A stretch of DNA of 64,000 nt from NCBI GenBank assembly GCA_937975645.1, contig CALJTV010000009.1, forward strand, positions 24,850 to 88,849, written 5' to 3'. Every line of letters begins with the position of its first letter. The stretch's first letter is position 1. The DNA is from an uncultured Dehalococcoidia bacterium (GTDB taxonomy: Bacteria; Chloroflexota; Dehalococcoidia; GIF9; UBA5629). Below are positions 17,123 through 34,501 of this stretch, one piece after another. The notes beneath the pieces were generated by a model, which saw nothing but the letters and a program-made list of their open reading frames with translations, made no database searches and was not told the DNA's origin. The position numbers and the translations under genes were made by a program.

Positions 17123-17153
17123 CACATTTGAGAAAGATGCAGGAGGGTTAGAA

Positions 17154-18713: not shown

Positions 18714-19215
18714 TAACAACGAAGGTTTTGCCCGTTGTCCAGAGATCGCCGTGGTTGGCGTCGGTAATGTACTGTTGAGCGACGATGGCGCAGGTGTACA
18801 TTTAGTCCACAGACTAGCTGAAAGGATCGACGATAGCGATGTTGCCATTGTCGATGCTGGCACTGTACCCGAGCTGTTTTTGCTAGCAGATGAGAGGATT
18901 AAGAAATTGATTTTTGTTGACGCTGCTAGGGGAGGGGGACTACCTGGCTCCATATATCGTTTCACTTTGGACGATCTTGAGGCGTCATCTGGGCTACCGG
19001 TTTCGTTGCATGACCTCACTTTGTTGGATAATCTGAGGTTATCGGAGCTTTTGGGTAGGAGACCGGAGTCTGTAATTATCATAGGTATAGAGCCGGCGAC
19101 TACCGATTTTGGTATACAGCTTTCTCTCGAGGTTGAGGAGGCATTGCCTAAAGCAATAGAGTTGGTGCTCAAGGAGATCGAAGAGTTTTCAAAACAGTCT
19201 ACGGAGGTAAAGTGA
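18688..19215 (+). CDS. hydrogenase maturation endopeptidase (HyaD/HybD/HupD family)
   Basis: Contains IAVVGVGNVLLSDDGAGVHLV, the conserved block of the hydrogenase C-terminal proteases. It overlaps the large-subunit gene. The exact start is uncertain. Confidence 0.8.
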   Translation: MLGRSGPVSNNEGFARCPEIAVVGVGNVLLSDDGAGVHLVHRLAERIDDSDVAIVDAGTVPELFLLADERIKKLIFVDAARGGGLPGSIYRFTLDDLEASSGLPVSLHDLTLLDNLRLSELLGRRPESVIIIGIEPATTDFGIQLSLEVEEALPKAIELVLKEIEEFSKQSTEVK

Positions 19216-19216
19216 C

Positions 19217-19900
19217 ATGATAGTGTCTCAGTTAAAGCCGCTACAGGAGATCCTTGGCTATTTGAATGGGGAAAGAAGCGTTTTCATAGTGGGTTGCAAG
19301 GGGTGTGCTGAAGTATGCCATACGGGCGATGAGGCACAAGTATTGGACATGAAGCAAAAGCTAGAACAGGAGGGTAAGGCCGTCACTGGGTATTGTGTGA
19401 TCGACTTTCTCTGTGACAAAGCGCTGGTAAAGATGCGGTTAATGGCTCACCAAAGCGAGATACAGGCTGCGGACTCTCTGTTAGTTATGACTTGTGGGAT
19501 TGGGGTACAGGCTGTAGCTGCAGTGGTCAATAAGCTAGTTCACCCAGCGGCCAACACTATCAATATGGGGGGGAGTAGGGGTGAGTGGCGTGGTGCCGAA
19601 CGTTGTCGTGAATGTGGTGATTGTGTTCTGGATATGACTGCTGGTATATGTCCTTTGACTGCATGTACTAAGGGGCTGCTAAACGGGCCGTGTGGCGGTG
19701 CCAAAGATGGCAGGTGCGAGGTCGAACCGGAGGTCAGGGAATGTGGCTGGCACCTTATTTATGAGAGACTGAATAAGCTTGGCAGACTGGACAAAATGAC
19801 CGGTCGCCCGGTGCTGAAAGACTACAGGAAAATGATGCCGCCAAAAGAACTGAGGTCGACGTTAATGTGGGCGCTGGAACAGCAGGAGACCAAAGTCTAG
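19217..19900 (+). CDS. metV: methylene-THF reductase small, Cys-rich subunit (MetV-like, MTHFR C-terminal-like domain)
   Basis: Cys clusters (CKGCAEVCH; CRECGDCV...CPLTACTKGLLNGPCGG) resemble acetogen MetV. It is directly followed by metF and starts 2 nt after the hydrogenase protease stop. Confidence 0.7.
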   Translation: MIVSQLKPLQEILGYLNGERSVFIVGCKGCAEVCHTGDEAQVLDMKQKLEQEGKAVTGYCVIDFLCDKALVKMRLMAHQSEIQAADSLLVMTCGIGVQAVAAVVNKLVHPAANTINMGGSRGEWRGAERCRECGDCVLDMTAGICPLTACTKGLLNGPCGGAKDGRCEVEPEVRECGWHLIYERLNKLGRLDKMTGRPVLKDYRKMMPPKELRSTLMWALEQQETKV

Positions 19901-19920
19901 CAACCTGTTAAAGGAGGTAA

Positions 19921-20793
19921 ATGTTGATGACTCTACGGGAAAAGCTCGGCAGTGGTAAATTTGTGGTGACTGCGGAAGTCGGTCCAGCTAAGGGGGTGGA
20001 CACCCATGAGTTTCTAGAGAATGTGGAGTTGCTGAAAAACCGTGTGGATGCAATCAATTGTACTGACCAGCAGAGTGCGGTGATGCGACTTGGTTCGCTA
20101 GCAGGTTGCTACCTTATCAGACAGAAGGGGGGCGAGCCCATCTTTCAGATGACATGTCGCGACCGGAATCGCATTGCCTTACAATCTGACTTGCTAAATG
20201 CCTACGTTTTTGGGATAGAGAACGTCCTGTGTCTCACGGGCGATTTTGTTACACTGGGTGACCATCCGGACGCGAAACCTGTGTTTGACCTCGACTCTGT
20301 ATCACTGCTTTATGCTGCTAAGCAGTTAGAGCAGGGGAAGGACTTGGCGGGAAAAGATCTCACTGGTGCCCCCAGGTTCTTCTTGGGTGCCTGCGTGACG
20401 CCTGGTGCTGAACCGTTGGAGCCGCAGCTCTTGAAAATGGAAAGGAAAGTCAAGGCAGGTGCCAAGTTCTTCCAGACCCAAGCGGTCTATGAACCTAAAA
20501 AGTTTGAGACTTTTATGAAGGAGGCAAGGAAATTTGGGGTACCTGTGCTTGTGGGCATAGTGTTACTGCGGTCAGCAGCGATGGCACGGTTCATGAACAA
20601 AAATGTTGCTGGGATACACGTGCCTGATGAGCTGATTGCAGAAATGGACAGAGCAGAGAATAAGCTGCAGAAGGGTGTTGAGATAGCTGCTCGATTGATC
20701 AGAGAGATGAAGGATATGTGTCAAGGTGTGCATATTATGGCGATCGGGCTAGAGTCGAAAGTCCCTGCTATTCTGGATGCAGCTGGGCTGTAG
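19921..20793 (+). CDS. metF: 5,10-methylenetetrahydrofolate reductase
   Basis: 290 aa MTHFR TIM-barrel (VVTAEVGP...INCTDQQSAVMR...CLTGDF). Confidence 0.85.
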   Translation: MLMTLREKLGSGKFVVTAEVGPAKGVDTHEFLENVELLKNRVDAINCTDQQSAVMRLGSLAGCYLIRQKGGEPIFQMTCRDRNRIALQSDLLNAYVFGIENVLCLTGDFVTLGDHPDAKPVFDLDSVSLLYAAKQLEQGKDLAGKDLTGAPRFFLGACVTPGAEPLEPQLLKMERKVKAGAKFFQTQAVYEPKKFETFMKEARKFGVPVLVGIVLLRSAAMARFMNKNVAGIHVPDELIAEMDRAENKLQKGVEIAARLIREMKDMCQGVHIMAIGLESKVPAILDAAGL

Positions 20794-20829
20794 AGGTGCC
20801 AGATATACTAGGCAACGGTGCAGTGACTG

Positions 20830-21609
20830 GTGCGTATCGTCCGTTTTTGCGTGGCAGGGAAAACGAACTATGGTATTCTTCTCGGTGCTGAAGTGCGGCG
20901 TTTGCGTCGTGACCCGTTCCTTCAGTTTGCATATTCAGACAAGATTTCTTACCTAGATAGTGTTTCCTACCGCTTGGACGATATTCGGTTGCTAGCACCT
21001 TGTACACCCTCGAAGATCGTTTGTCTCGGGCTTAATTATCGGGGACATATCGAGGAGATGGGGTTAGCTGTACCTTCTGTGCCTCTTATCTTTTTGAAGC
21101 CCTCCACTGCCGTTATCGGGCCTAACGAAAGCATTGTTTTGCCGTATGGCTGCCGCCGTGTTGATTATGAGGGTGAGCTCGCTGTTGTTATCGGCAAAAG
21201 AGCAAAGAATGTGCCAGCGGCGAAGGCAGCCGAATATATCCTGGGCTATACCTGCTTTAATGATGTCTCTGACCGTGAGGCGCAGACAGTGGATGGGCAG
21301 TGGACTAGAGCGAAGGGTTATGATACCTTTGCACCCTTGGGTCCATGGATAGAGACGGGTATTTCACCCCACAACCTCAGGTTGGAGACATATGTTAACG
21401 GTGAGCTTAGGCAGTCAGCTTCCACTAGGGAGCTGGTTTTCGGCGTACCAGAACTGGTGAGTTTTATCTCAGACATCATGACACTCCTTCCCGGGGATGT
21501 TATTGCCACAGGTACACCTGCTGGTGTAGGATCTCTCAAACCAGGGGATGTGGTGCAGGTCAAGATCGAAGGTATTGGGGCGTTGACAAACCCAGTTGTC
21601 AACGCTTGA
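20830..21609 (+). CDS. fumarylacetoacetate hydrolase (FAH) family protein
   Basis: FAH-fold signature (VCLGLNYRGH...YEGELAVVIGK...FNDVSDRE...GDVIATGTPAGVG). Confidence 0.8.
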   Translation: MRIVRFCVAGKTNYGILLGAEVRRLRRDPFLQFAYSDKISYLDSVSYRLDDIRLLAPCTPSKIVCLGLNYRGHIEEMGLAVPSVPLIFLKPSTAVIGPNESIVLPYGCRRVDYEGELAVVIGKRAKNVPAAKAAEYILGYTCFNDVSDREAQTVDGQWTRAKGYDTFAPLGPWIETGISPHNLRLETYVNGELRQSASTRELVFGVPELVSFISDIMTLLPGDVIATGTPAGVGSLKPGDVVQVKIEGIGALTNPVVNA

Positions 21610-21636
21610 GTGCTCTGCTGATACGAATGACCTGTG

Positions 21637-21679
21637 TGGTGTCAAGTTTGGTGTCAAGCCATGTGGTAAGTGTGGTAAG
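21637..21679. repeat. clustered short direct repeats upstream of the orphan regulator gene (TGGTGTCAAG x2, period 12; GTGGTAAG x2, period 9)
   Basis: Read directly from the sequence at 21637-21658 and 21663-21679. They lie about 120-165 bp upstream of the CDS starting at 21801. Confidence 0.4.
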
Positions 21680-21800
21680 TATAGGTTTCCGGCTCGAGAA
21701 TGGGGGAGCTTTTGACTTATTTACTATTGAGATGTTAGACTTGCGCTAGGGAACATTTATTGGAGAGTAGCGTAGTAGGGGGCTGTGGGACAGGAGAGCA

Positions 21801-22478
21801 ATGCGCGAGATAAAAGTTTTACTGGCTGGTGGCAAGGAGATTTTTCGTGAAGGGCTGACGAGGCTGCTAAAGGAGCAACCGCATATCAGCGTAGTCTCAC
21901 AGTGCAGCAGCAGGCAGGCGCCGACAAAGGTCAAAGAGACCAAGCCTGACGTGATCATTATAGATACTAACCCTGTTGTAGCGGATGCCTTGATGGCTAC
22001 CAGAAAGATCAGTCGGCTATACCCCAAGACGAAGATAGCTGTTCTCACCGAGGAGGGTAATGAAGGAGAACTTCTGTTCGTTATGGAGCAAGGTGCTCAA
22101 GGATATTTGACTAAGGGTATTTCGGTGGAAGACCTGATCAAGTGTATTGAGCTTATAGCCCGTGGTGAAATTGTGATCACTCCTTTAGCTTCTGCAAGCC
22201 TCCCTAAGGATTTAATTTCTCGGCGTAATGCCAAGGGACGTAAAGATACAGAAGGCAAGCCTTGTCTTTCTAATAGAGAGTTGGAGATTGTAGGTCTGGT
22301 AGCAAACGGGTTGACGAACAAAGAAATAGCCCAAAAGTTGTCCATAACTGACAATACGTCCAAAGTCCATATTAAAAACATCCTTAGCAAACTGCAGTTG
22401 AGGAATCGGCAGCATCTAGCTGCTTATGCTGTGCAGCATGGTCTGGCTACTACATTAAGCGGATCAGACTCCGAATAG
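21801..22478 (+). CDS. LuxR/NarL-family regulator with an atypical receiver domain (acidic pocket DD replaced by GG)
   Basis: C-terminal LuxR HTH (LSNRELEIVGLVANGLTNKEIAQKLSITDNTSKVHIKNILSKL). The N-terminal REC-like fold retains the phospho-acceptor position (IIIDTNP), T (IAVLT) and K (YLTKG), but the N-terminal acidic pair is GG (VLLAGGKE). No kinase gene is adjacent. Confidence 0.8.
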   Translation: MREIKVLLAGGKEIFREGLTRLLKEQPHISVVSQCSSRQAPTKVKETKPDVIIIDTNPVVADALMATRKISRLYPKTKIAVLTEEGNEGELLFVMEQGAQGYLTKGISVEDLIKCIELIARGEIVITPLASASLPKDLISRRNAKGRKDTEGKPCLSNRELEIVGLVANGLTNKEIAQKLSITDNTSKVHIKNILSKLQLRNRQHLAAYAVQHGLATTLSGSDSE

Positions 22479-22632
22479 ATTCAAGCTACCTCTGTACGGG
22501 ATAAGTTTTTGGCAGCGCCGTATGCTAAATTCTCGGTATCCTATCCGAGTATAATTACGGTTGACTGTCATATGATGTAATGCTACAATACGTACTCGGT
22601 TTGCTTTGAGTAATGCGACAAAGGGGGCTCCT

Positions 22633-23511
22633 ATGGTTCTGATCGGTGAAAGTATACACATAATTTCTCGGCGTGTCAGCGAGGCTGTTAGAGACAGGAA
22701 TGCCAGTGTGATTCAAGAGTTAGCTAAGGCGCAGGCTGAGGCGGGAGCTGATTACATAGATCTAAACCTCGGACCAGCGAAGAAAGACCCAGTAGGGATG
22801 ACGGAGTGGTTGGTGAACGTAGTTCAAGAGGTCACTAATTTGCCATTATCTATTGATACACTGAACCCTATAGCGATGGAAGCTGGTTTGAGACTTTGTA
22901 AAAAGCGTCCTTTGCTGAATTCAGCTTCTGGAAGGACTGACAGCAAGGCTGAGATGCTACCCCTGGCTAAAAAATACAATTGCGATGTGGTCATATCGGT
23001 GCTTACTGATAAAGGTTGCCCGCCCGATGTAGATTCCAGAACTGAGAGCATTATGGAGACGGTGGCTTACGCGAATGAGCTTGGAATCCCCAATGAAGAC
23101 ATCTGGGTTGATCCTATTATTCTACCTGTAAGCGCCGACCAGAAGCAGGTGCGAGAAGCACTTGAGTTTATCAAGATACTCCCTGACCTGTTGCCGGGTG
23201 TGAAATCCACGGTAGGTTTGTCGAACGTGTCAAATGGTACCCCAGAGGAGCTCAGGGGTATTCTCAACCGGACTTATATGGTCATGCTGGGGCGGTATGG
23301 ACTTTATTCTGCGATTGCTGACACGTTAGATCATGAGCTGGTCAAGTTGAACAGAGGCGAGCTACCGCACATAGTTGACCTCATTTATAAGGCTATGGAC
23401 AGCGAGCCAATAGACATGTCCTCTCTCTCCAAGCAGGAACAGGACTATGTCAAGACTACCAGGGTATTGATGGGAGAGACACTCTACTCCCATGCCTGGT
23501 TGGAAGCATAA
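22633..23511 (+). CDS. acsE: methyltetrahydrofolate:corrinoid/iron-sulfur protein methyltransferase (AcsE, pterin-binding)
   Basis: Pterin-binding barrel (MVLIGESIHIISRR...GADYIDLNLGP...) like Moorella AcsE. ATG at 22633 follows an AAGGGGG RBS. Confidence 0.85.
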   Translation: MVLIGESIHIISRRVSEAVRDRNASVIQELAKAQAEAGADYIDLNLGPAKKDPVGMTEWLVNVVQEVTNLPLSIDTLNPIAMEAGLRLCKKRPLLNSASGRTDSKAEMLPLAKKYNCDVVISVLTDKGCPPDVDSRTESIMETVAYANELGIPNEDIWVDPIILPVSADQKQVREALEFIKILPDLLPGVKSTVGLSNVSNGTPEELRGILNRTYMVMLGRYGLYSAIADTLDHELVKLNRGELPHIVDLIYKAMDSEPIDMSSLSKQEQDYVKTTRVLMGETLYSHAWLEA

Positions 23512-23533: not shown

Positions 23534-24439
23534 ATGGAATATAAGGCACCGGTAGAAAGTTATTCTGGAAGGGTGGTGGAGGTAGTTATTGGGAGGGGCG
23601 AAAAGGCACTCAAGATCGGTGGCGAAAATGTTCTACCATTTCATTTTTTTGAGGGGGCGATTGCCAACCCTCCCAGATTAGCCCTGGAGGTGCTCGATAG
23701 TGTTCCGGTGGGCTGGTCGCAATGGGAAGTCAACCCTTATAAAGATGTTGTTTCTGAGCCGGTTCAGTGGGCAAACAGAGCACTAGAACTCGGGGCTGAC
23801 CTCGTCTGCTTGCGTCTAGTGGGCACCGACCCAACAGGTCAGAATGTACCTGGGGATAAGGCTGCTGAGCTGGTGAAAAGTGTGGCTTCAGCAATACGGT
23901 CACCACTCATTGTGTATGGCTCTGGAGACGAGGTCAAGGATGTCGAGGTGCTGACAAAGGTAGCAGAAGTGTGTGCAGGCGAAGCCCTGCTTCTGGGGCC
24001 AGTGGTAAAGGAAAACTATGAGCCTATAAGCAAAGCAGCTCTGGATTATGGTCACTGCATAATTGCGCAGAGTCCACTTGATATAAACCTGGAAAAAGAA
24101 CTGAATGTAAAGCTCCTGAAATCGTTTCCTAGAGAGCGCATAGTGATCGACCCCTTGAGTTCAGCCCTCGGCTACGGTATGGAGTACAGTTTCACCATTA
24201 TGGAGAGGACAAAGCACATCGGCATCATGTTCGGTGATAGCACCATGCAGATGCCCATCATAGCTGACCTTTCTAGTGAGTGTGCCAAGACCAAACAAGC
24301 GAAAGAGAGTGAGAAACAGGGGTTACTCTGGGAGCTCGTCACAGCTATAAGCCTCTTGCTTGCTGGCGCCAATATCGTAGTACTCAGGTTGCCACAGAGC
24401 TTAAAAATATTGAGAGAGGTCCTTGAAGGTAAGTTATAA
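23534..24439 (+). CDS. acsD: corrinoid iron-sulfur protein small subunit (AcsD/CdhD)
   Basis: 301-aa TIM-barrel-like CFeSP small subunit with conserved blocks (LVGTDPTGQ...IVYGSGD...IDPLSSALGYG). Confidence 0.85.
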   Translation: MEYKAPVESYSGRVVEVVIGRGEKALKIGGENVLPFHFFEGAIANPPRLALEVLDSVPVGWSQWEVNPYKDVVSEPVQWANRALELGADLVCLRLVGTDPTGQNVPGDKAAELVKSVASAIRSPLIVYGSGDEVKDVEVLTKVAEVCAGEALLLGPVVKENYEPISKAALDYGHCIIAQSPLDINLEKELNVKLLKSFPRERIVIDPLSSALGYGMEYSFTIMERTKHIGIMFGDSTMQMPIIADLSSECAKTKQAKESEKQGLLWELVTAISLLLAGANIVVLRLPQSLKILREVLEGKL

Positions 24440-24506
24440 AATTGATAATCATTTCTGATTCTGCTAGAATATAATCAGCCCAACCACTGTGGAAAGGAGC
24501 CTCAGC

Positions 24507-26813
24507 ATGAAAGTTGTTGAAAAAAAGAGAACGCGGAAGGACGAGGTATACAAGGTTATTAAGGCTGATGACAAGTGGGAACCGATTGGTCACACACCGA
24601 TGCCCGAGATTCCGGACTTGAGGAACTGGGATCTAAGGTTGCTGAAGACATACAAGCCATTTTACGCTCCGTTCTGTGACTTGTGCTGTTTTTGTACTTA
24701 TGGCAAGTGTGACCTTACTGGTGATAAAAGGGGTGCCTGTGGCATCGACATATCAGCCCAGCAGGCGAGGATAGTATTGTTAGCTTGCTGTATGGGCATG
24801 TCTGCACATGGGGGGCATGCCAGACATGTTCTGCACTACCTCATAGAGAGGCTTGGACCAGATTATAAGATCAATCTGGGCGACCAAATACTCGTGGAGG
24901 CGCCCCATATCCGCACTGTGCTGGGAATGAAACCGGAGACCCTCGGTGATTTGGAAAAGGTGATGGAGTATGCAGAGAGTCAACTTATCCAGTGTGTTTC
25001 CTCGTTGCACACTGGACAGGAGGGCTCGGCACTGGACTACGAGTCTAAGGCGCTGCACATCTCAATGCTTGACCACGTGGTCATGGAGGTTGCTGACATT
25101 GCCCAGATAGTTGGTTTTGGCTACCCCACATCTAAAGCGGACACCCCGCTTGTCGGTCTTGGCTGGGGTGCAGTAGACAGGACAAAACCAGTCATCCTTT
25201 TAGTTGGGCACAATCCGGTGACAGCTGTCCCGATCGTTGATTACCTAAATGAGCATGGACTCGCAGACAAGGTTGAGGTGGCAGGTATTTGTTGTACCGC
25301 CCTTGAGGTGACCCGGTATAGTGAGAGAGCCAAAGTGGTGGGTCCCCTCTCTCGTCAATTATTCTTTGTGCGTTGTGGCATCGCCGATGTAATAGTTACT
25401 GATGAGCAGTGCATCAGGACAGATATGCCGATAGAGGCGGCTAAGGTGGGCTCGGCTTTGATTGCTACTTCAGAGAAGGTTTGTTATGGGCTCGAAGATG
25501 CCAGTAAGAAGGCGGTTGATGAGATAGTTAGTGATATGCTCAACCACAGCAAGCAGGTACTGATACTCGACCCGGAGAAGGCGGCTGAAGTTGCAGTCAG
25601 AGTCGCGCTGGGACTGGCACCAAAAAGGAACAAGGTCCTAGTGAAGCCGGAAGAGGTGCCAGAGCTGGCTAAGGGCCACAGGCTGTGCAATATGTGCAGC
25701 CAGGTGTGCCCGAACCTTCTGCCGGTGGGCGATGCCATCGAGGCAGCCAAGAACGGTAATATTCAGCCGCTTGTAGAGGTCTTTGAAAAGTGTATTGGCT
25801 GTGGCAAATGCGAGCAGGAATGTCCAAGGCACGTGCCCATCTTTAAAATGATGCAGGCAGCAGCAAGCTGGGAGGAGTGGAAGATAAGGGCAGGACGCGG
25901 ACCCATCATGGACACAGAGATCCGGAAAGTGGGTGCCCCGATTGTTCTAGGTACCATCCCCGGCGTTATTGCTATTGTTGGTTGTTCCAACTTTCCGGAG
26001 GAGATTGAGGAGATAGCCGAGATAGCTGAGGAGTTTGCCAAGCGAAAGTATATCGTGGTATTGAGCGGCTGTTCGGCTATGGTGGCGGGGATGAAGAAGG
26101 ACAAGGAAGGCAAGACCCTTTATGAGAAGTACCCCCCCGACTTCGATGCCGGCGGCATAGTCAATGTGGGCTCTTGTGTGGCGAACGCGCACATAACCGG
26201 CGCAGCTATCAAGATTGCCAACATCTTTGCGACGCTTCCACTCAGGGGTAATTATGAGGTTATTGCTGACTACATTCTGAACCGCGTGGGCGCTTGTGGA
26301 CTTGCCTGGGGTGCTTATTCTCAGAAGGCAGCCTCAATTGCCACTGGATGCAACCGTCTGGGTATTCCCGTGGTGGTGGGTCCACATTCCTCCAAATATC
26401 GCAGGCTGTATTTAAGCCGCAAGGAAGAAGATGACTGGACAGTCATGGACGGCAGAGAGAAAAAGTTGGTGGACACCCAGGAACCCTCTCCCGAGCATCT
26501 GATCACAGTTGTGGAATCTAAAGAGAGGGCAATGGTAACGCTGGCTAAACTGTGCATCCGGAAAAACGATACGCCTCAGGGGCGTCAGATCAAATTGACC
26601 CATTATATCGGCCTTCACAAACAGTATCTTGGCACACTGCCCGATGACCTTCATCTTTACATAAGAAGAGCCTCTGATATTCCCATCTTCTTTAAGAAGG
26701 AGGTAACGGCTTATCTGGAAAAGGTGGGCTGGAAGGAGAAACCGGTGCTCAGTCTGCCGACTTTGATCGGGACATATCCTTCCGAGGTGCCCATCGATGC
26801 TGTAGTGCATTAA
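24507..26813 (+). CDS. cdhA: acetyl-CoA decarbonylase/synthase complex alpha subunit (Ni-CODH catalytic subunit, archaeal Cdh type)
   Basis: About 770 aa with N-terminal Cys clusters (CDLCCFCTYGKCDL), an inserted 2x[4Fe-4S] ferredoxin-like domain (CIGCGKCEQECP) and a C-cluster region (VGSCVANAH). An epsilon-subunit gene follows downstream. Confidence 0.9.
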   Translation: MKVVEKKRTRKDEVYKVIKADDKWEPIGHTPMPEIPDLRNWDLRLLKTYKPFYAPFCDLCCFCTYGKCDLTGDKRGACGIDISAQQARIVLLACCMGMSAHGGHARHVLHYLIERLGPDYKINLGDQILVEAPHIRTVLGMKPETLGDLEKVMEYAESQLIQCVSSLHTGQEGSALDYESKALHISMLDHVVMEVADIAQIVGFGYPTSKADTPLVGLGWGAVDRTKPVILLVGHNPVTAVPIVDYLNEHGLADKVEVAGICCTALEVTRYSERAKVVGPLSRQLFFVRCGIADVIVTDEQCIRTDMPIEAAKVGSALIATSEKVCYGLEDASKKAVDEIVSDMLNHSKQVLILDPEKAAEVAVRVALGLAPKRNKVLVKPEEVPELAKGHRLCNMCSQVCPNLLPVGDAIEAAKNGNIQPLVEVFEKCIGCGKCEQECPRHVPIFKMMQAAASWEEWKIRAGRGPIMDTEIRKVGAPIVLGTIPGVIAIVGCSNFPEEIEEIAEIAEEFAKRKYIVVLSGCSAMVAGMKKDKEGKTLYEKYPPDFDAGGIVNVGSCVANAHITGAAIKIANIFATLPLRGNYEVIADYILNRVGACGLAWGAYSQKAASIATGCNRLGIPVVVGPHSSKYRRLYLSRKEEDDWTVMDGREKKLVDTQEPSPEHLITVVESKERAMVTLAKLCIRKNDTPQGRQIKLTHYIGLHKQYLGTLPDDLHLYIRRASDIPIFFKKEVTAYLEKVGWKEKPVLSLPTLIGTYPSEVPIDAVVH

Positions 26814-26834
26814 GTGGAGTTCGAGAGGTAAGTA

Positions 26835-27536
26835 GTGCGTATTTTGATTGCAATCCAGGGGCATTACGGTCAGCGGATTGCCGATAATATTAAAAAGTAT
26901 GCGCCGGCAGACTGGAAGATGTTTGTCCATACCTTGCCGGCTGAGCTACCAAGTATTATTGATGACGCAGAGCAGTTCTTGCCTAAGGAGCTACCTCAGG
27001 TTGATCTGCTGATATCTTTGGGAGAACATCCTGGCGTTGCCCAGATGATCCCAGACCTAGTTATTAGAAGCGGCGCCAAGGCAGTCATCGCACCTGCGGA
27101 CAATCGTGCCTGGTTGCCCCCGGGGTTAGCCAAACAGATAAAGAAAAAACTGGTTTCCCTGGGAACAGAGATGGTGTATCCGGTGCCGTTTTGTACGTTA
27201 ACAGAAAGGGATGCTCAGAGTCCCTACATCCGTGAGTTTGCCAGGTATTTTGGTAGACCGGTGGTGGAGATTGAGATGGATAGGGATAGGGTGAGGCATA
27301 TGAGTGTAGTCAGGGGGGCTCCCTGTGGCTGTACGCCGTATGTAACGGAGGGGTTGGTCGGGGTCTGGGAAAGAGACGCAGTAGAGAAAGCGGGGCTTTT
27401 ACACCATCAATATCCCTGCTTGGCGACGATGGCCATGGATCAGGAATTTGGTGATACTTTAATGCACCGTGCTGGTTTAATGACCAAGCTGGCGGTTGAG
27501 AATGCCTTGAAAGCTGCCAAGGTAGCACAATTATAG
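26835..27536 (+). CDS. conserved hypothetical protein embedded between cdhA and cdhB (possibly DUF166-like)
   Basis: 233 aa. GTG start at 26835 after a GAGAGG RBS. Contains CGC and PC motifs (RGAPCGCTPY, HHQYPCLA). It is tightly packed in the operon (21 nt after cdhA, 11 nt before cdhB). The family assignment is tentative and from memory. Confidence 0.6.
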   Translation: MRILIAIQGHYGQRIADNIKKYAPADWKMFVHTLPAELPSIIDDAEQFLPKELPQVDLLISLGEHPGVAQMIPDLVIRSGAKAVIAPADNRAWLPPGLAKQIKKKLVSLGTEMVYPVPFCTLTERDAQSPYIREFARYFGRPVVEIEMDRDRVRHMSVVRGAPCGCTPYVTEGLVGVWERDAVEKAGLLHHQYPCLATMAMDQEFGDTLMHRAGLMTKLAVENALKAAKVAQL

Positions 27537-27547
27537 TAAGGAGGCTT

Positions 27548-28105
27548 GTGATGACTATGACTTTGCCGTATCACCGGGTCAATGTATTGACTGGCACCAA
27601 GGCAGCCAGGATTATCGAGGACCCGAGTGAGTATGCCCATTTGATCAAGCGCGCCAGCAGGCCGCTGCTTGTCCTCGGACCCAGAATTTTGACCATGTCT
27701 CTCGGTGAAAGACTGCTTGCGGAGTATGCAGTGGAAATTGCCAAGGCTGCAGACATACCTATCTGTGCTACGGCTCATACCCAGAAGAAATTACTGGAGC
27801 TGGGTGTACAGCCAGCCAGCAACTATGACCTTATTGAGATAATCAATCATCTTAAAGACCCTGAATGGCGCGGGGTCAAGAAAGAGGGTAACCACGATCT
27901 TGTCATATTCCTCGGTGTTAGGACCGATCTTGGTGAGCAGGGGCTATCCACATTGAAACATTTTGCGCCACACCTCAAAACGATGACGTTATGCAAGTAC
28001 TACTATCCAAATGCCAGTTACTCCCTTCCTAACTTCCGCAAGGACGAGCAATGGAAGGAGTTCTTGGACAAATTGATAGAAAATCTCAAAACGAAGGAGG
28101 CGTAA
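27548..28105 (+). CDS. cdhB: acetyl-CoA decarbonylase/synthase complex epsilon subunit
   Basis: 185 aa with size and position typical of CdhB. A strong AAGGAGG RBS precedes the start. It is directly followed by cdhC, whose start (28108) is 2 nt after the cdhB stop. Confidence 0.75.
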   Translation: MMTMTLPYHRVNVLTGTKAARIIEDPSEYAHLIKRASRPLLVLGPRILTMSLGERLLAEYAVEIAKAADIPICATAHTQKKLLELGVQPASNYDLIEIINHLKDPEWRGVKKEGNHDLVIFLGVRTDLGEQGLSTLKHFAPHLKTMTLCKYYYPNASYSLPNFRKDEQWKEFLDKLIENLKTKEA

Positions 28106-28107
28106 AG

Positions 28108-29334
28108 ATGGCAGGTATTTTCCCCGTAGATGTTGGTCCTCAGTATGAGGGCGAGGTTATCAGAAAAGCTGACCTTTATGTTGAGTTCGGAGGGCCGAAC
28201 GTAAGGAGCAAGTTTGAGCTGGTCACTTTGAAGGGGCTGGATGAGGTGGACAATGAAAAAATAGAGGTAATCGGTCCAGATATGAAGGATATGCAGGAAG
28301 GTGGTAGTTATCCCCTAGGTTTGATGATAGACGTCGCTGGCGAGAAGCTAGAAAAAGATATGGAACCGGTTCTGGAGAGGCGGATACACCTCTATGCTAA
28401 CTATATCGAAGGCTTGTACCATATGAACCAGAGGGACGACATTTGGGTTAGGATAAGCAAGGATTCTTATAACAAGGGGCTCAATTCGCTGGAGGAGATA
28501 GGCAAGATATTGATGTTCCTCTTTACCTCCGAGCTCGATGTAATTGAGAAAATCTCTATAACTTTTGTCACCGATGAGAAGAAGGTCGAAGAACTCATAA
28601 CCAAAGCCAGAGAGATCTATAAGGCTAGAGACGAAAGGGCAAGAGGTTTAAGGGAGGAAGATGTGGAGGAGTTTTACAGTTGTGCCCTTTGCCAGAGCTT
28701 TGCCCCTACTCATATATGCATCGCTACTCCGGAGCGCGTGGCAAACTGTGGTGCGATAAGCTGGTTTGATGGCAGGGCTGCTTATAAGCTCGACCCCGAG
28801 GGACCGGTGCAGGAGGTCAAGAAGGGCGACTGTCTTGACCCGATAAGGGGCGAATATAGCGGTTGCAACGAGCTGGCAGCGGTGAAGTCCATGGGGACCT
28901 ACAACCGCGTCTATCTGCACAGTGCTTTTGAGCATCCGCACACGTCCTGTGGTTGTTTTCAGGCTATCTGGTTCTATATCCCTGAGGTCGATGCTTTTGG
29001 GCTGGTGCACCGCGATTTTGCTGGTCCTACTGTGGTCGGTGTGCCTTTTTCTACCATGGCGGCAGATACCAGTGGTGGCAGACAGGTTGAAGGGTTCCTC
29101 GGTATGGCTCTAGAGTATTTGAGGTCACCGAAATTCCTTCAGGCTGACGGGGGTATCAGGCGGTGTGTCTGGATGCCCAAGGAGATAAAAGAGAAGTATC
29201 GGGATGCCATCCCGGAGGATCTTTTCGATAAAATAGCTACCGAGGAGGATGTCAAAAACGTTGATGAACTGGTGGAGTTCCTCAATCGAGTAGAACATCC
29301 TTGGGTAAAGGGTGAAGTTGAGCTACCCACATAA
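28108..29334 (+). CDS. cdhC: acetyl-CoA synthase catalytic (A-cluster) subunit, short archaeal-type CdhC
   Basis: Carries the A-cluster ligand region (ALCQSFAPTHICIATPERVANCG ... HTSCGCFQAIWFY). It is about 410 aa, the length of archaeal CdhC rather than the roughly 730-aa bacterial AcsB. Confidence 0.9.
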   Translation: MAGIFPVDVGPQYEGEVIRKADLYVEFGGPNVRSKFELVTLKGLDEVDNEKIEVIGPDMKDMQEGGSYPLGLMIDVAGEKLEKDMEPVLERRIHLYANYIEGLYHMNQRDDIWVRISKDSYNKGLNSLEEIGKILMFLFTSELDVIEKISITFVTDEKKVEELITKAREIYKARDERARGLREEDVEEFYSCALCQSFAPTHICIATPERVANCGAISWFDGRAAYKLDPEGPVQEVKKGDCLDPIRGEYSGCNELAAVKSMGTYNRVYLHSAFEHPHTSCGCFQAIWFYIPEVDAFGLVHRDFAGPTVVGVPFSTMAADTSGGRQVEGFLGMALEYLRSPKFLQADGGIRRCVWMPKEIKEKYRDAIPEDLFDKIATEEDVKNVDELVEFLNRVEHPWVKGEVELPT

Positions 29335-29366
29335 TGTGTAAGTTTACGTAACACTAGGAGGTAGAT

Positions 29367-30734
29367 ATGCCGCTCAAAGGTACTGATATTGTAAAGAAGC
29401 TGCCTGATGGAGGGAAGAAGAATTGCAAGGAATGTGGGTTCCCGACTTGTTTTGCCTTTGCGATGAAGCTGGCAGCGGCTGGCACCACGCTGGACAAGTG
29501 TCCTTACCTCGCTGCCGATGTCAAAGCTGAACTTGAGGAGGCACTGGCGCCACCCATAAAGTTGGTGACCATTGGCAAAGGAGGCGCTGCACTTCAAATT
29601 GGGAATGAAGAGGTGATCTATCGCCACGAGAAGACTTTTATTCACCCACCTGGTATCGGCTTGCTCATCTCGGACAAAGAACCGGAAACCACGGTTGGTG
29701 ACAAATTAGCAAAAGTGAAGGAGCTGCAGTTCCCTTGGGTGGGACGCGTTCTGAAAGCAGATGTTCTGGCTTTACAGTCCCAGTCCGGAGACAAAAGCAA
29801 ATTTGAGGCTCTGGTGAAACGTGCCTGCGATACCACTGATTTGCCGCTGGTGCTGATTTCAGAGGATGTCGATGTCCTGCTCTCTGGATACCAGCTTTGT
29901 AGTGAAAGGAAGCCGTTACTTTACCCGGTCACCAAGGAAAATATAGAAAAGATTATCGCAGCTGTCAAAAATAAACCGACCCCTCTAGCGGTCAGGGGTA
30001 GTAGCGTCGAAGAGTTGGTGCCATTGACGATTAAACTTAAGGAAGCTGGGCTTGAGGAGATTGTTCTTGACCCCGGTTCGAGAAACTTTAGAGATGCTGT
30101 GCGGGATCAGACGTTGATAAGACGGGCAGCCCTAAAACAGAACTTCAAACCACTGGGTTATCCCACAATCGGTTTCCCGTGTTTCATGAGCAACGATGAA
30201 GTGAAGCAGGTTCTTCTGGCTGCCATGTTTGTTATCAAGTACCCGGGCATTATTATTCTTTCGGATTTTGACCAGTATTCGCTGTTGCCCTTACTGGTGC
30301 AGAGACTAAATATCTACACTGATCCTAGAATTCCAATGTCGGTGGAGCAGAAGATCTACGAAATAGGTGAGCCGACTTCTGAATCCCCTGTGTTGATCAC
30401 CAGCAACTGGGCATTGACCTATTTCATCGTTGCCTCTGAGATTGAAGGCAGCAAAGTCCCGTCGTGGTTGCTGGTTAAGGACACAGAGGGGCTGGGTGTG
30501 CTCACTGGTTGGGCTGCAGGTAAATTCTCGGGAGATTCTATAGGGCCATTTGTCAAAAAGAGTGGAATAGAAGAGAAAGTGAGACACAGGCGGCTTGTCA
30601 TCCCTGGCAAAGTGGCACGGATCAAAGGTGAACTGGAGGAGGCTTTGCCCGGCTGGGAGATAATTGTTGGTCCCAGGGAGGCAAGTGAAATACCAGCTTA
30701 TTTGCCCAACCTAGTTCAGAAGTGGAAGAACTGA
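29367..30734 (+). CDS. acsC: corrinoid iron-sulfur protein large subunit (AcsC/CdhE)
   Basis: N-terminal [4Fe-4S] motif CKECGFPTCFAFAMKLAAAGTTLDKCP followed by TIM-barrel and B12-binding domains. Confidence 0.9.
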   Translation: MPLKGTDIVKKLPDGGKKNCKECGFPTCFAFAMKLAAAGTTLDKCPYLAADVKAELEEALAPPIKLVTIGKGGAALQIGNEEVIYRHEKTFIHPPGIGLLISDKEPETTVGDKLAKVKELQFPWVGRVLKADVLALQSQSGDKSKFEALVKRACDTTDLPLVLISEDVDVLLSGYQLCSERKPLLYPVTKENIEKIIAAVKNKPTPLAVRGSSVEELVPLTIKLKEAGLEEIVLDPGSRNFRDAVRDQTLIRRAALKQNFKPLGYPTIGFPCFMSNDEVKQVLLAAMFVIKYPGIIILSDFDQYSLLPLLVQRLNIYTDPRIPMSVEQKIYEIGEPTSESPVLITSNWALTYFIVASEIEGSKVPSWLLVKDTEGLGVLTGWAAGKFSGDSIGPFVKKSGIEEKVRHRRLVIPGKVARIKGELEEALPGWEIIVGPREASEIPAYLPNLVQKWKN

Positions 30735-31207
30735 AGGCAGAACTGGCTGATATTCTGGAACCGAGCAAAAGGGACAGGCGGTTTCTGATTTCGCTCCTTC
30801 AGGAAATCCAGCAGAGGCTAGGTTATCTACCCGAAGATGCGATGTTAGCCCTGGCTGATTTTTTAGGTGTGCCGGGGAGCACGGTCTATGGTGTAGCCAC
30901 TTTTTACAACCAGTTCCGTTTCGCACCCCAGGGCAAGCATCAGGTAAAAGTGTGTATGGGCACTGCCTGCCACCTTGCTGGTGGGCAGCTTGTTCTTGAG
31001 GCTATGTCACGCGAGCTGCAGGTGGATGTCGGCGGGGTTACTCCTGACAGAACGTTTGGCTTGGAAAGGGTTGCTTGTGTTGGCTGTTGCGCACTGGCTC
31101 CAGTGGTGGTCATAAACGGTGCTGTTTACCCCAGGATGAGCCCTCCGAAAGTGGAGGAGGTTCTGGTGAACATAAAGTTAGGCAATCGGGAACATACGAT
31201 CGAGTAG
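30722..31207 (+). CDS. NuoE/HoxE-like thioredoxin-fold [2Fe-2S] protein
   Basis: Cys ligands in the C(x4)C...C(x3)C arrangement (CMGTACHLAGG...CVGCCALAP). GTG start overlaps acsC by 13 nt. Confidence 0.8.
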   Translation: MEELKAELADILEPSKRDRRFLISLLQEIQQRLGYLPEDAMLALADFLGVPGSTVYGVATFYNQFRFAPQGKHQVKVCMGTACHLAGGQLVLEAMSRELQVDVGGVTPDRTFGLERVACVGCCALAPVVVINGAVYPRMSPPKVEEVLVNIKLGNREHTIE

Positions 31208-31253
31208 TGTTGACTCCGCCCACAGCATGTAGTTCTTCTGTGTAAATTTTTCA

Positions 31254-33134
31254 ATGGTCTTCGATGAGATTCTGAGACGTGCCAAACAAGAATGGGAGTC
31301 GTTCTGTTGTGGTGATGTTCCCAGGATTCTTGTTGGTACAGCCACCTGTGGTCGTGCTGCTGGTGCCCTAGCTGTTGTTGAAGCTCTAAAAAAAGAGCTG
31401 GAGAGATGCAAACTCCAGGCAACTATAACAGAGGTGGGGTGTATAGGTCTTTGTTCGTTCGAGCCTTTGGTAACCATTATTAAGCCGAATTACTTCACCG
31501 TTTGTTACCACAATGTAACTCCTCAGAAAGTCCCGGTGCTTATTGAAAGCTGTATTGCTAATGATGACCCGTGTCTTGATTTAGCTCTTGGGACGGTTGA
31601 CAGAGATGAACGAGGGGCAGTCTACATCCCTGAGTTACCGCGTTTTGAGCATGAGTACCGTGTTCTTTTGCGGAATTGTGGCTATATTGACCCAAGTAAT
31701 CTAAGTCACTATGTTGCCAACGGCGGTTATGGAGGGCTGAAAAAAGCGTTGGGAATGGCACCAGAGGCTGTCATTGAAGAAGTCAAACTCTCCGGGCTGC
31801 GAGGGCGGGGAGGTGCTGGCTTTCCTACGGGTAGGAAATGGGAGCTATGCCGAAAAGCTTCGGATGAGCCCAAATATGTCATCTGTAATGCTGATGAAGG
31901 AGACCCAGGTGCCTTTATGGACAGAGTGCTTCTAGAGAGCGACCCTTATGCGGTGGTGGAAGGCATGACCATCGCTGCATATGCTGTCGGAGCCAAACAG
32001 GGGTTTGTGTATATTCGGGCTGAGTACCCTTTGGCTGTTGAGCGTTTGGAGGCTGCTTTGCATCAGGCGGAAGAATTGGGGCTATTGGGGGAAAATATAC
32101 TTGGCAAGGGATTCGATTTCAGCATTGAGATTGCTAAGGGTGCAGGTGCATTTGTTTCAGGCGAAGAAACTGCGTTAATACATGCAATTGAAGGCAGAAG
32201 AAGCGTACCGCGTGTGAGGCCCCCTTACCCGGCTGAGAAAGGCTTATGGGGCAAACCTACATTGATCAACAATGTCAAAACCTTTGCTTCTGTGCCGCCA
32301 ATTATTGATAAGAGCGCAGGCTGGTTTTCCAGCATAGGCACAGAGAGCAGCAAGGGCACTGCCATGTTTGCCTTGGCTGGCAAACTGGTTAATACTGGTT
32401 TGGTGGAGGTGGCGATGGGGACGACCCTGCGAAAACTCATCTTCGACATTGGCGGTGGCATCCGTGGTGGCAAAAGATTTAAAGCAGTCCAAATTGGAGG
32501 ACCATCTGGCGGTTGTCTGCCAGAGTCTATGCTTGATGTCCCGGTGGATTTTGACTCCTTGCGGCAGGCGGGGGCGATCATGGGTTCCGGGGGTATCATC
32601 GTCATGGATGAAGACAACTGTATGGTGGACACTGCCAAATTTTTTCTTGACTTTATCCAGAAAGAGTCTTGTGGTAAGTGTTCTACCTGCCGTATTGGCA
32701 CTAAACACTTGCTAAACATACTCGAGGATATTACAGCGGGGCGGGGAAAAATCGATGACCTGAACCTGCTGGCCGAACTATGTGAAGATATAAGAGGGGG
32801 TTCTCTGTGTGGTCTTGGTCGCACTGCACCGAATCCAGTGTTAACCACGTTGAGGTATTTCAGGGGCGAATATGAGGCACACGTCTTGGAAAAGAAGTGC
32901 TCGGCGCTGGTGTGCAAGGACTTAATTGCTTACTATATATTACCGGATAAATGCGAACGTGGCTGCGAGCATTGTGTGCTCGCATGTCCAGCAAAGGCGA
33001 TAAGCCCTGGCAGGGGGGGTGTGAAGGTTATAGACCAGAGCAAGTGTACCAAGTGTGGTAGTTGCCAGCTTGTTTGTCCCCCAGAGTACAGCGCGGTGGT
33101 AAAGGTCTCACCGGTGAGTTCATTACCTCGATAG
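31254..33134 (+). CDS. NuoF/HoxF-like NAD(P)H-binding flavoprotein with N-terminal [2Fe-2S] domain and C-terminal 2x[4Fe-4S] domain
   Basis: FMN/NADH site (GRGGAGFPTGRKWE), [4Fe-4S] N3 motif (ESCGKCSTCRIG) and C-terminal ferredoxin motifs (CERGCEHCVLACP; CTKCGSCQLVCP). Confidence 0.9.
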   Translation: MVFDEILRRAKQEWESFCCGDVPRILVGTATCGRAAGALAVVEALKKELERCKLQATITEVGCIGLCSFEPLVTIIKPNYFTVCYHNVTPQKVPVLIESCIANDDPCLDLALGTVDRDERGAVYIPELPRFEHEYRVLLRNCGYIDPSNLSHYVANGGYGGLKKALGMAPEAVIEEVKLSGLRGRGGAGFPTGRKWELCRKASDEPKYVICNADEGDPGAFMDRVLLESDPYAVVEGMTIAAYAVGAKQGFVYIRAEYPLAVERLEAALHQAEELGLLGENILGKGFDFSIEIAKGAGAFVSGEETALIHAIEGRRSVPRVRPPYPAEKGLWGKPTLINNVKTFASVPPIIDKSAGWFSSIGTESSKGTAMFALAGKLVNTGLVEVAMGTTLRKLIFDIGGGIRGGKRFKAVQIGGPSGGCLPESMLDVPVDFDSLRQAGAIMGSGGIIVMDEDNCMVDTAKFFLDFIQKESCGKCSTCRIGTKHLLNILEDITAGRGKIDDLNLLAELCEDIRGGSLCGLGRTAPNPVLTTLRYFRGEYEAHVLEKKCSALVCKDLIAYYILPDKCERGCEHCVLACPAKAISPGRGGVKVIDQSKCTKCGSCQLVCPPEYSAVVKVSPVSSLPR

Positions 33135-33294: not shown

Positions 33295-34050
33295 ATGGCG
33301 GTGACTATTGTAGTGGCGGGGAAGGGTGGGGTGGGCAAGACAGCAGTGGCTGCATTGCTTATAGAGTCTTTGTCGAAAAAGGGGGTGGTACTGGCTATAG
33401 ATGCCGACCCGAGCACAAATTTGAATCTTGCCTTGGGGCTACCTCTAGGCGAGACGGTGGGTAAGGCTAGGGAAGATATTACCGAAGCGATTCAGAAGGG
33501 TACCCTCTCGCCGACTGTTTCCAAACAGGATGTGCTGGACATGAAGATACGAGAGGCGCTGGTCGAGTCGAATAAGATCGACCTGCTAGCAATGGGTAGA
33601 CCTGAGGGGCCGGGATGTTATTGTGCCGCTAATCATATGCTACGGCTTACTATAGACAGACTAGCCAAAAGTTATGATTACACTGTCATTGATTCAGAGG
33701 CAGGGATGGAGCATATAAGTCGTCAGACGACTCGAGATGTGGATGTACTAATCATAGTTTCGGATGTTACCATACGAGGCATAATGGCAGCTGCCAGGAT
33801 GAAGGAGCTCATAAAGGAGCTGAGGACCAAAGTGGGCAAAATAGTTCTGGTGGTCAACAGGTCAAGAGATGGCTTGCCCCAAGAGATACAAGATGCTATT
33901 CAGAAATACGGGCTGGAGCTAATTGGTGTCATTCCCGAAGACCCATATATAGGTGAGCTTGATATGAAGGGGAGTCCTTTGATCGAGCTTCCAGGAGAAT
34001 CCCCCTTAAGACGTGGGGTTGAGGATATAATTACTAAACTTGGTCTATGA
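33295..34050 (+). CDS. cooC: CODH nickel-insertion accessory ATPase (CooC/AcsF, MinD-family)
   Basis: Begins MAVTIVVAGKGGVGKT (deviant Walker A). About 250 aa. Own promoter-like TATAAT upstream; the ATG follows a GGAAAGGAGG RBS. Confidence 0.85.
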   Translation: MAVTIVVAGKGGVGKTAVAALLIESLSKKGVVLAIDADPSTNLNLALGLPLGETVGKAREDITEAIQKGTLSPTVSKQDVLDMKIREALVESNKIDLLAMGRPEGPGCYCAANHMLRLTIDRLAKSYDYTVIDSEAGMEHISRQTTRDVDVLIIVSDVTIRGIMAAARMKELIKELRTKVGKIVLVVNRSRDGLPQEIQDAIQKYGLELIGVIPEDPYIGELDMKGSPLIELPGESPLRRGVEDIITKLGL

Positions 34051-34087
34051 TCGGTTTCCATTTTCATATCTTGAGAGGTTCTGTTCC

Positions 34088-34501
34088 ATGGGTTCTAAAG
34101 GAAAGAAATTGGTCAGCTTGCGTGAGATAGAGGGGGTAGTAAGCCCTCATCAGCGCCAGATAGATTCTGCGCTGGCAGCACGAAAAGAGGCTCTGGAGTA
34201 CGTCAAAGATGTGGCCGGGCTAGCAAAGTACATTGGAGGTAAAGTTGAGTCGCTCGGGATCGGCGAAGACTGGGCTTTGTGTAAGCGGATATTTCCGGGT
34301 GTAACGGTGTATTTCGTCTTCACCAAGTCTGACGAAGAATTTCCTAGTAGCTTGAAGGTCCTTTTTTCGGGCAGAAGAATAAGCGTTATGAAAGGCGAGG
34401 ACCTCGCGGGGTTCGTCATACTCTATGTAAATCACATGCTCAGGTATATTAGAGAAACGATGGCAAACGAGACGCTGCCTGAAGTATGCTACAGAGTATA
34501 A
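34088..34501 (+). CDS. DUF3786-like protein commonly found in CODH/ACS gene clusters
   Basis: About 138 aa immediately after cooC. My recollection of this family co-occurring with acs genes supports the call. Start chosen at the ATG after a GAGAGG RBS; an alternative start at 34040 is possible. Confidence 0.5.
   Translation: MGSKGKKLVSLREIEGVVSPHQRQIDSALAARKEALEYVKDVAGLAKYIGGKVESLGIGEDWALCKRIFPGVTVYFVFTKSDEEFPSSLKVLFSGRRISVMKGEDLAGFVILYVNHMLRYIRETMANETLPEVCYRV

Follow-up and report, generated by a model that had tools for sequence, protein, structure and literature searches.

Which protein is encoded between the alpha and epsilon subunit genes of a CO dehydrogenase/acetyl-CoA synthase (CODH/ACS), and what does it do for that enzyme? 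The question is raised by a 64,000-nucleotide (nt) stretch of an uncultured Dehalococcoidia bacterium (GenBank assembly GCA_937975645.1, contig CALJTV010000009.1, positions 24,850 to 88,849 of the forward strand; hereafter the window), in which a cluster for the carbonyl branch of the Wood–Ljungdahl pathway occupies approximately 22.6–34.5 kb. The genes lie on the plus strand in the order acsE, delta, cdhA, a 233-amino acid (aa) open reading frame (ORF), cdhB, cdhC, gamma, nuoE-like, nuoF-like, CooC-like and DUF3786. The 233-aa ORF proved to be a full-length member of the Pfam family DUF166, which is recurrently linked, and in some bacteria fused, to CODH. We rate it about an even call that its product is an accessory factor for the maturation or repair of the CODH catalytic subunit, co-transcribed with cdhA and cdhB, and not a stable catalytic subunit.

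A DUF166 gene between cdhA and cdhB

The central part of the cluster consists of the following features.

24507..26813, plus strand: cdhA, archaeal-type CODH alpha subunit (TIGR00314, 1120 bits; cut-off 781)
26814..26834, plus strand: 21-nt spacer between cdhA and the DUF166 ORF, with the ribosome-binding site (RBS) GAGAGG (direct reading)
26835..27536, plus strand: DUF166 gene, 233 aa (Pfam DUF166)
27537..27547, plus strand: 11-nt spacer between the DUF166 ORF and cdhB, with the RBS AAGGAGG (direct reading)
27548..28105, plus strand: cdhB, epsilon subunit (TIGR00315, 146 bits, cut-off 101; Pfam CO_dh)
28108..29334, plus strand: cdhC, short archaeal-type ACS subunit, 408 aa (TIGR00316, 618 bits; cut-off 356)

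The initial annotation of this DNA, made from its letters and ORFs alone, had given the extent of the region (24507–30734), the coordinates of the inserted ORF, the gene identities, the two spacers and the separate RBS of that ORF, and all of them hold. Its assignment of an archaeal-type CdhA–CdhB–CdhC enzyme was likewise confirmed, because all three proteins scored above the equivalog cut-offs, which identifies an oxidoreductase module of the archaeal acetyl-CoA decarbonylase/synthase (ACDS) type. CdhA contains a Prismane domain and an inserted two-[4Fe-4S] ferredoxin domain (Pfam Fer4, residues 400–448), and the bacterial N-terminal domain CODH_A_N (PF18537) was not detected in CdhC by the Pfam search. 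Translation of cdhA starts at an ATG with GGAAAGGAG ahead of it, that of the DUF166 ORF at a GTG located 7 nt 3′ of GAGAGG, and that of cdhB at the GTG at 27548, preceded by AAGGAGG; the start of cdhC is most likely the ATG at 28108, which also follows an AAGGAGG, and relatives are likewise called at 408 aa. The spacers flanking the DUF166 ORF are too short for a promoter or a terminator, and a site scan found no terminator-like site between cdhA and cdhB.

DUF166 (PF02593) had been no more than a guess, which the Pfam search upheld with an E-value of 2.7e-56 and 191 bits (cut-off 24.4), residues 6–226 of the 233 aligning to profile positions 3–220 of 221. A search of 5.8 billion proteins returned 874 homologues; the best 120 of the 874 were 71–100% identical to the window protein and, where named, came from Dehalococcoidia/Chloroflexota. 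A further search, with the family profile as query, largely brought back Dehalococcoidia proteins that had already been found and hardly widened the diversity, and the family as a whole is small (396 clusters at 50% identity). No confident match to an unrelated housekeeping enzyme was obtained, and no second DUF166 copy was found within the window.

DUF166 genes in CODH/ACS clusters

The neighbourhoods of DUF166 genes were surveyed in one genome per species (80 loci), the neighbours being labelled by phmmer within the stretch retrieved for each locus; the survey was seeded with a narrow alignment, and the sample is therefore biased toward Chloroflexota. Core CODH/ACS genes were present in 34 of the 80 loci and cooC alone in 5 more. 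The exact order cdhA–DUF166–cdhB was observed in 20/80 loci, from Dehalococcoidia, Ca. Psychracetigena and a Coprothermobacterota metagenome-assembled genome (MAG), and relatives with long contigs shared the identical order acsE, delta, cdhA, DUF166, cdhB, cdhC, gamma, nuoE, nuoF. The ORF is thus conserved, and not the spurious or isolated insertion that the initial annotation had allowed for.

Other lineages showed other arrangements: cdhABCDE–cooC–DUF166–DUF166 in Bathyarchaeia and Nitrososphaeria, cooC–acsD–acsE–DUF166 in Spirochaetota and Planctomycetia, a longer DUF166 gene followed by cooS–acsB in Anaerolineae, and two tandem DUF166 copies within the CODH/ACS cluster of one Bacillota MAG. 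As had been claimed for archaeal cdh operons, cdhA and cdhB are adjacent in the archaeal clusters L069, L070 and L080, and they are also adjacent in some Bacillota clusters (L038, L090, L091). Since alpha and epsilon are neighbours in the archaeal clusters, the insertion of DUF166 between them is a trait of one bacterial lineage group.

Several variants were noted in the course of the survey. The tandem archaeal pair follows cooC in loci L066, L068, L069, L070 and L080 (second copy at, for example, L069 10771–11706); the second protein is approximately 311 aa long and carries a C-terminal extension. In some cases its PCG motif, whose cysteine is otherwise invariant, reads PGG, a loss suggesting that the two proteins form a heterodimer in which one partner is degenerate. 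In Anaerolineae and related bacteria, DUF166 proteins of 370–390 aa with an N-terminal receiver-like domain are encoded just upstream of cooS–acsB (L057 2192–3373 and L078 9569–10723; P0136, P0151, P0188). The match of this domain to Pfam Response_reg is weak (23 bits, under the cut-off), and its phospho-acceptor residues appear degenerate, while the N-terminal extension of other long forms (P0127, P0130, P0131) gave no Pfam match. The Chloroflexota MAG CAVSBU01 has two contigs (L007, L010), each with a cdhA–DUF166–cdhB cluster whose cdhA is broken into two ORFs, possibly by frameshifts, strain variation or assembly errors.

The frequent adjacency of DUF166 genes and cooC bears on one alternative, namely that the protein is a chaperone for nickel or another metal, whose Cys3His residues (described below) would bind Ni and which, with CooC, would insert it into the C-cluster of CODH, as CooJ and CooT do in Rhodospirillum. 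Both the position beside cooC in Methanococcus maripaludis and Bathyarchaeia and the loci with cooC alone speak for it.

DUF166–CODH fusion proteins

In the 878-aa protein P0222, DUF166 is fused to an anaerobic CODH catalytic subunit, the CODH part of which scored 712 bits against TIGR01702 (cut-off 478). A dedicated search recovered 14 protein clusters of DUF166–AcsA/CooS fusions of 877–907 aa from independent samples, mutually 66–100% identical, in which DUF166 occupies the N-terminus of AcsA. On two Bacillota contigs (L090, L091) the fusion is one continuous ORF followed by acsB, acsC, RACo, (cooC,) acsD and acsE; this bacterial-type cluster is located directly downstream of an archaeal-type acsE–delta–cdhA–cdhB–cdhC–gamma cluster (the whole spanning L090 650–18724 and L091 571–18225), so that each contig carries two complete CODH/ACS systems in tandem, with alpha and epsilon adjacent in the archaeal-type one. 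A model of the DUF166–CooS fusion had a predicted local distance difference test score (pLDDT) of 83.6 and a predicted template modelling score (pTM) of 0.72, scores that leave the domain interface aside. The fusions indicate a physical tie between DUF166 and the CODH subunit, be the latter archaeal or bacterial in type, and the linkage and fusion (34/80 loci; 14 fusion clusters) are those expected of a CODH/ACS accessory factor.

In CODH structures the N-terminus is located close to the end that holds the D-cluster, and RACo is known for the reductive reactivation of the corrinoid protein. Against this background, a permanent fusion to the AcsA N-terminus in 14 protein clusters, like the mid-operon position of the gene between alpha and epsilon, also suits the main rival explanation, which casts DUF166 as a redox partner or reductive activator. 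In that role it would hold a stable cluster or a redox-active cysteine pair, feed electrons to CODH or reactivate its oxidised clusters in a RACo-like manner, and be a semi-permanent extra subunit in the present cluster.

Relation to known systems

The family has been examined genetically in M. maripaludis, where the DUF166 gene MMP_RS05055 and cooC2 make up one operon that runs divergently from that for CODH/ACS (10.1101/2024.03.05.583561, a 2024 preprint). In that study, randomly barcoded transposon data placed the gene in cofitness with every cdh gene (r 0.94–0.99), and a clean deletion abolished CO2 fixation, was complemented in trans and was defective only under autotrophic conditions, showing that the family is needed for autotrophy in this organism; its authors suggested that the protein assists CO2 assimilation as an accessory (10.1101/2024.03.05.583561). 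The same protein (MMP0976, COG1810) is, like CdhB, among those specific to all methanogens and Archaeoglobus (A. fulgidus) (PMC1852104), and DUF166/COG1810 is also known as a selenoprotein (PMC1976440, PMC9312934). MMP_RS05055 and the window protein belong to one Pfam family and are both tied to CODH/ACS, but the former is encoded outside the cdh operon, in a two-gene unit with cooC2, and the latter inside a bacterial hybrid cluster, where it separates cdhA from cdhB; archaeal-looking DUF166 representatives are approximately 30% identical to the window protein. Native ACDS of Methanosarcina acetivorans contains five subunits only, with metal contents that fit this stoichiometry (10.64898/2026.07.07.736967), which argues against a stable DUF166 subunit in that enzyme. 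That an archaeal ACDS is fully active with five subunits and no DUF166 (10.64898/2026.07.07.736967), and that the archaeal gene stands outside the cdh operon and beside cooC, both tell against a redox partner.

Hybrid six-subunit enzymes combining CdhABC with AcsCDE have been described in Ca. Desulforudis audaxviator, Chloroflexi RBG_13_51_36 and NPL-UPA2 ‘Unc8’ (PMC6305446, citing Adam et al. 2018). They share with the window the combination of an archaeal oxidoreductase and a bacterial methyl branch, and DUF166 is not mentioned there. The Unc8 gene table does, however, list a 225-aa ‘thyA’ between acsE and acsD, transcribed in situ at about the acsE level (PMC6305446); this is probably a DUF166 gene, whereas that of the window lies between cdhA and cdhB. 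The archaeal-type enzyme in a bacterial context, to which the initial annotation had drawn attention, is therefore present but already published for Chloroflexi (PMC6305446), and its description of the inserted gene as an uncharacterised CODH/ACS component holds for the biochemistry, which is unassigned, and not for the link between DUF166 and CODH/ACS, which is in the literature. What the window adds is a family member in an unusually intimate operon position.

CooC (and AcsF), CooJ and CooT are known CODH maturation factors, and DUF166, likewise encoded in or beside CODH clusters, apparently shares their task as an accessory for active Ni–Fe–S CODH. They are unrelated to DUF166 in sequence and fold, and DUF166 has neither a P-loop nor a His-rich tail; the missing tail counts against a nickel chaperone.

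Many DUF166 homologues are still named ‘thymidylate synthase’, and one gene table (PMC6305446 supplement) assigns KEGG ‘thyA’ K22882. Taken at face value, the source names of close homologues and the ‘thyA’ label on the likely Unc8 orthologue would make the window protein a thymidylate synthase. This reading is effectively refuted, and we rejected it: no Pfam match to ThyA (PF00303) or ThyX (PF02511) was obtained and no such fold in the fold search, Pfam and NCBI now name the family DUF166, the genomic context is CODH/ACS or iron–sulphur (Fe–S) biogenesis, and the M. maripaludis phenotype is confined to autotrophy (10.1101/2024.03.05.583561).

DUF166 paralogues in Fe–S biogenesis operons

The family is not specific to CODH. 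Dehalococcoidia paralogues that are 63–72% identical to the window protein were found in a cluster without CODH genes (L084 8001–8708, L087, L088 and L089, the last being identical to L019), and one Dehalococcoidia MAG has both the cdh-linked copy (L014) and the paralogue (L019). This second cluster encodes NifS, NifU, a DsrE-like protein, TusA, rubrerythrin, SufC, SufBD, a flavodiiron protein, desulfoferrodoxin, peroxiredoxin and DUF166, followed 3′ by a 101-aa protein, a heavy-metal P-type ATPase, a YHS protein and ferritin. More distant members show comparable linkage: a 45%-identical DUF166 gene closes a NifS–NifU–DsrE2–TusA–DUF1858–DUF166 operon, with the same order in L056 (5739–6497), a 53%-identical one follows SufC–SufBD after a 9-nt gap, and a 270-aa form adjoins a divergent NifS–NifU–MnmA unit (L095 7001–7813). 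The loci in NifS/Suf contexts, within an overall identity range of 45–72%, include L092 7001–7765 and L093 7001–7696. In a neighbour-joining tree without support values, the Dehalococcoidia paralogues were placed beside the cdh-linked Dehalococcoidia clade, with cdh-linked outgroups, suggesting that an ancestor linked to CODH was duplicated.

DUF166 thus has two recurrent sets of partners, CODH/ACS with cooC and the genes of Fe–S biogenesis, and the residence of paralogues in NifS–NifU and SufCBD operons favours assembly over electron transfer. Both alternatives can draw on the same cluster: the oxidative-stress genes around the Dehalococcoidia paralogue (rubrerythrin, desulfoferrodoxin, peroxiredoxin and flavodiiron) are suitable company for a redox protein, and its position upstream of the P-type ATPase and YHS-domain genes for a metal chaperone. 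However, direct linkage to NifS–NifU or SufCBD is typical of cluster biogenesis and not of electron carriers, and the recurrent NifS/NifU/SufBD association points to Fe–S over Ni.

Conserved residues and predicted structure

Residue conservation was assessed in a 46-sequence family alignment reaching down to 27% identity. C120 (PFC), G140, C164 (PCG) and G165 were invariant, and F135, P142, P163, P194, C195 (YPC) and H211 were conserved in at least 90% of the sequences; the window protein carries all of the family-wide signatures (PFC, FG.P, PCG and YPC, plus the last-helix His). The cysteine motifs picked out in the initial annotation were therefore correct as to C164 and C195, but C166, the second cysteine of its ‘PCGC’, is not conserved. 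A large subfamily that includes CODH-fused forms has a CxxCxxCxxC sequence inserted in the N-domain (P0222 residues 7–17; P0187, P0230), which might provide another site for a metal or cluster; it lends weight to a redox role, although the window protein is without the insert. The existence of selenoprotein members (PMC1976440; NCBIfam DfsP) points in the same direction. DfsP (NF041372), a DUF166 (seleno)protein, shares the Pfam superfamily of the window protein, which is itself not a member of that equivalog (83.3 bits; cut-off 200). No in-frame TGA/selenocysteine codon occurs inside the window ORF, and a TGA read-through scan across the retrieved loci found no DUF166 gene with an in-frame TGA. 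Fragments broken near residue 120 were considered as a clue to selenocysteine and rejected, since they are contig ends or frameshifts.

An AlphaFold2 model of the window protein, built on a 44-sequence alignment, had a pLDDT of 94.9 and a pTM of 0.91. The predicted N-domain (approximately residues 1–115) is five-stranded and Rossmann/flavodoxin-like, with a conserved G-x-Y-G-x-R loop, and the predicted C-domain (approximately 116–233) is of the alpha+beta class. A PDB sequence search found no relative of the protein, and Foldseek against solved structures returned only generic Rossmann matches to the N-domain. A Rossmann-like domain with a conserved Gly-rich loop would be at home in a redox protein, but no classical GxGxxG or flavin motif is present in DUF166.

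On the basis of the model and a profile comparison, we propose that the C-domain is a divergent IscU/NifU-like scaffold domain. Profile–profile alignment (hhalign) against a small IscU profile, assembled from five NifU genes of the retrieved loci together with four further sequences entered by hand, gave a score of 27.7 over 103 columns (E 4.7e-4, probability 32%). In this alignment the DUF166 beta-hairpin falls on IscU strands 2–3, C164 on IscU Cys63 and H211 on IscU His105, the helix after C164 with its G...EA motif is in register, and the C-terminal helices are matched. None of 200 column shuffles reached the observed score (mean 11.4 ± 2.2; highest value 22.3), and a control with the profile reversed gave 19.1. 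Compared with an IscU/NifU N-type scaffold (PF01592; A. fulgidus IscU, PDB 4eb5 chain C), which lacks a Rossmann-like N-domain, the window protein has this domain in addition, and its counterparts of the IscU ligands C37 and C106 would be C120 and C195, which come from other segments, the inter-domain linker and an inserted loop, respectively. A Cys3His set is plausible as a Ni/Zn/Cu site, as a metal chaperone would need, but an IscU-like C-domain is unlike any known Ni chaperone.

Proposed role of the DUF166 protein

CdhA contains five metal clusters, including the Ni–Fe–S C-cluster. If DUF166 is an accessory factor, as we favour, C120, C164, C195 and H211 would form a putative Cys3His site holding a labile Fe–S cluster or another metal centre. 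Such a cluster, we infer, would be built on DUF166 or come to it from the NifS/NifU or Suf machinery; DUF166 would then pass it to CdhA or repair the clusters of CdhA, probably together with the CooC ATPase encoded downstream. The initial annotation had called the inserted gene a candidate for a CODH/ACS assembly or electron-transfer component, which gene order, the CODH fusions, the adjacency to cooC in archaea and the M. maripaludis knock-out support.

Several observations weigh against a transient maturation factor. In 34 of the 80 loci, neither CODH/ACS genes nor NifS/NifU/Suf-like matches were present in the stretch retrieved. A Pfam scan of 77 neighbours in loci without CODH genes, two genes on each side, revealed no recurrent family, and targeted searches found NifS/NifU in some of these loci; ‘SufC’ matches in the targeted search, probably generic ABC ATPases, were excluded from the counts. 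Metal or cluster binding by DUF166 proteins is putative, being read from conserved residues. The likeness to IscU is weak in sequence (probability and reversed-profile score as given above), the window protein did not match Pfam NifU_N (PF01592) at E ≤ 0.01, and of the four IscU ligand positions just two line up, equivalents of C37 and C106 being absent. The gene lies between two structural genes with strong RBSs and is permanently fused to CODH in some Bacillota, which a stoichiometric redox domain fits at least as well as a transient chaperone, and the selenocysteine-containing members (DfsP) suggest redox chemistry. We regard a redox partner or activator as unlikely for the window protein, and a chaperone for Ni or another metal as quite improbable.

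A more specific form of the accessory role is a conjecture by analogy to NifU/NifEN of nitrogenase assembly, and one that we hold to be doubtful. DUF166 might be a dedicated scaffold, made of an IscU-derived domain and a nucleotide-binding Rossmann-like domain, on which the Fe–S core of the C-cluster would be pre-assembled before CooC-dependent Ni insertion, and the paralogues might serve strict anaerobes more generally, as a scaffold for repairing clusters damaged by oxygen.

Other genes of the cluster

The remaining features of the cluster are as follows.

22561–22589: promoter-like site ahead of acsE
22606..23511, plus strand: acsE-like methyltetrahydrofolate:corrinoid methyltransferase (NCBIfam NF005719, 232 bits, slightly short of the cut-off of 259; Pfam Pterin_bind, E 9e-20)
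23534..24439, plus strand: delta subunit (AcsD/CdhD), short 301-aa form (NF003376, 349 bits, cut-off 280; Pfam CdhD)
24442..24470, plus strand: promoter-like site 5′ of cdhA, TTGATA-17-TAGAAT with extended TG (consensus match only)
29367..30734, plus strand: gamma subunit (AcsC/CdhE), large corrinoid Fe–S protein subunit (NF003195, 569 bits; cut-off 306)
30722..31207, plus strand: NuoE/HydC-like [2Fe-2S] protein (Pfam 2Fe-2S_thioredx, E 1e-46; order kept in relatives)
31254..33134, plus strand: NuoF/HydB-like flavoprotein (counterpart in L001 carries Complex1_51K and NADH_4Fe-4S)
33295..34050, plus strand: CooC-like P-loop maturation ATPase (Pfam CbiA, ParA, Fer4_NifH; homologue in L001 of 251 aa)
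34088..34501, plus strand: DUF3786 protein, paired with cooC (Pfam DUF3786, E 3.6e-10)

The flanking acsE-like, delta and gamma genes are those that had been named at the outset. Counts of promoter-like sites across the region were not clearly above those in shuffled sequences. The starts of the CooC-like and DUF3786 genes were set from relatives of 251 and 137 aa, the ORFs themselves opening at 33229 and 34040, respectively.

The start of the nuoE-like gene overlaps the gamma gene by 13 nt. The order gamma–nuoE–nuoF (30722–33134 for the latter two) is common to the Dehalococcoidia, Ca. Psychracetigena and Coprothermobacterota loci, and suggests that the pair is an NAD(P)H-linked, possibly bifurcating, electron module of the hybrid CODH/ACS. 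The cooC–DUF3786 pair (33295–34501) recurs in L001, L004, L005, L016 and L017, and DUF3786 may be another CODH/ACS accessory. The region 5′ of the cluster (16232–22478) encodes small and large subunits of a NiFe hydrogenase, a HycI-like protease, a DUF5981/MetV-like gene with methylenetetrahydrofolate reductase (MTHFR), a gene of the FAA-hydrolase family and, directly before acsE, a REC+LuxR response regulator; the order MetV–MTHFR...regulator–acsE is also present in L001.

Implications for CODH cluster assembly

The ‘thymidylate synthase’ label on DUF166 proteins is a persistent misannotation. The family is small and ancient, it follows CODH through both archaea and bacteria, and in the single organism examined autotrophy cannot proceed without it. 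Little beyond the CooC ATPase has been established for the assembly of the C-cluster and the many other CODH/ACS clusters. The placement of the gene between alpha and epsilon, the CODH fusions, and a predicted IscU-like domain with putative Cys3His ligands, together with paralogues in NifS/NifU/Suf contexts, turn an ‘unknown accessory’ into a specific and testable hypothesis on cluster assembly in CODH.

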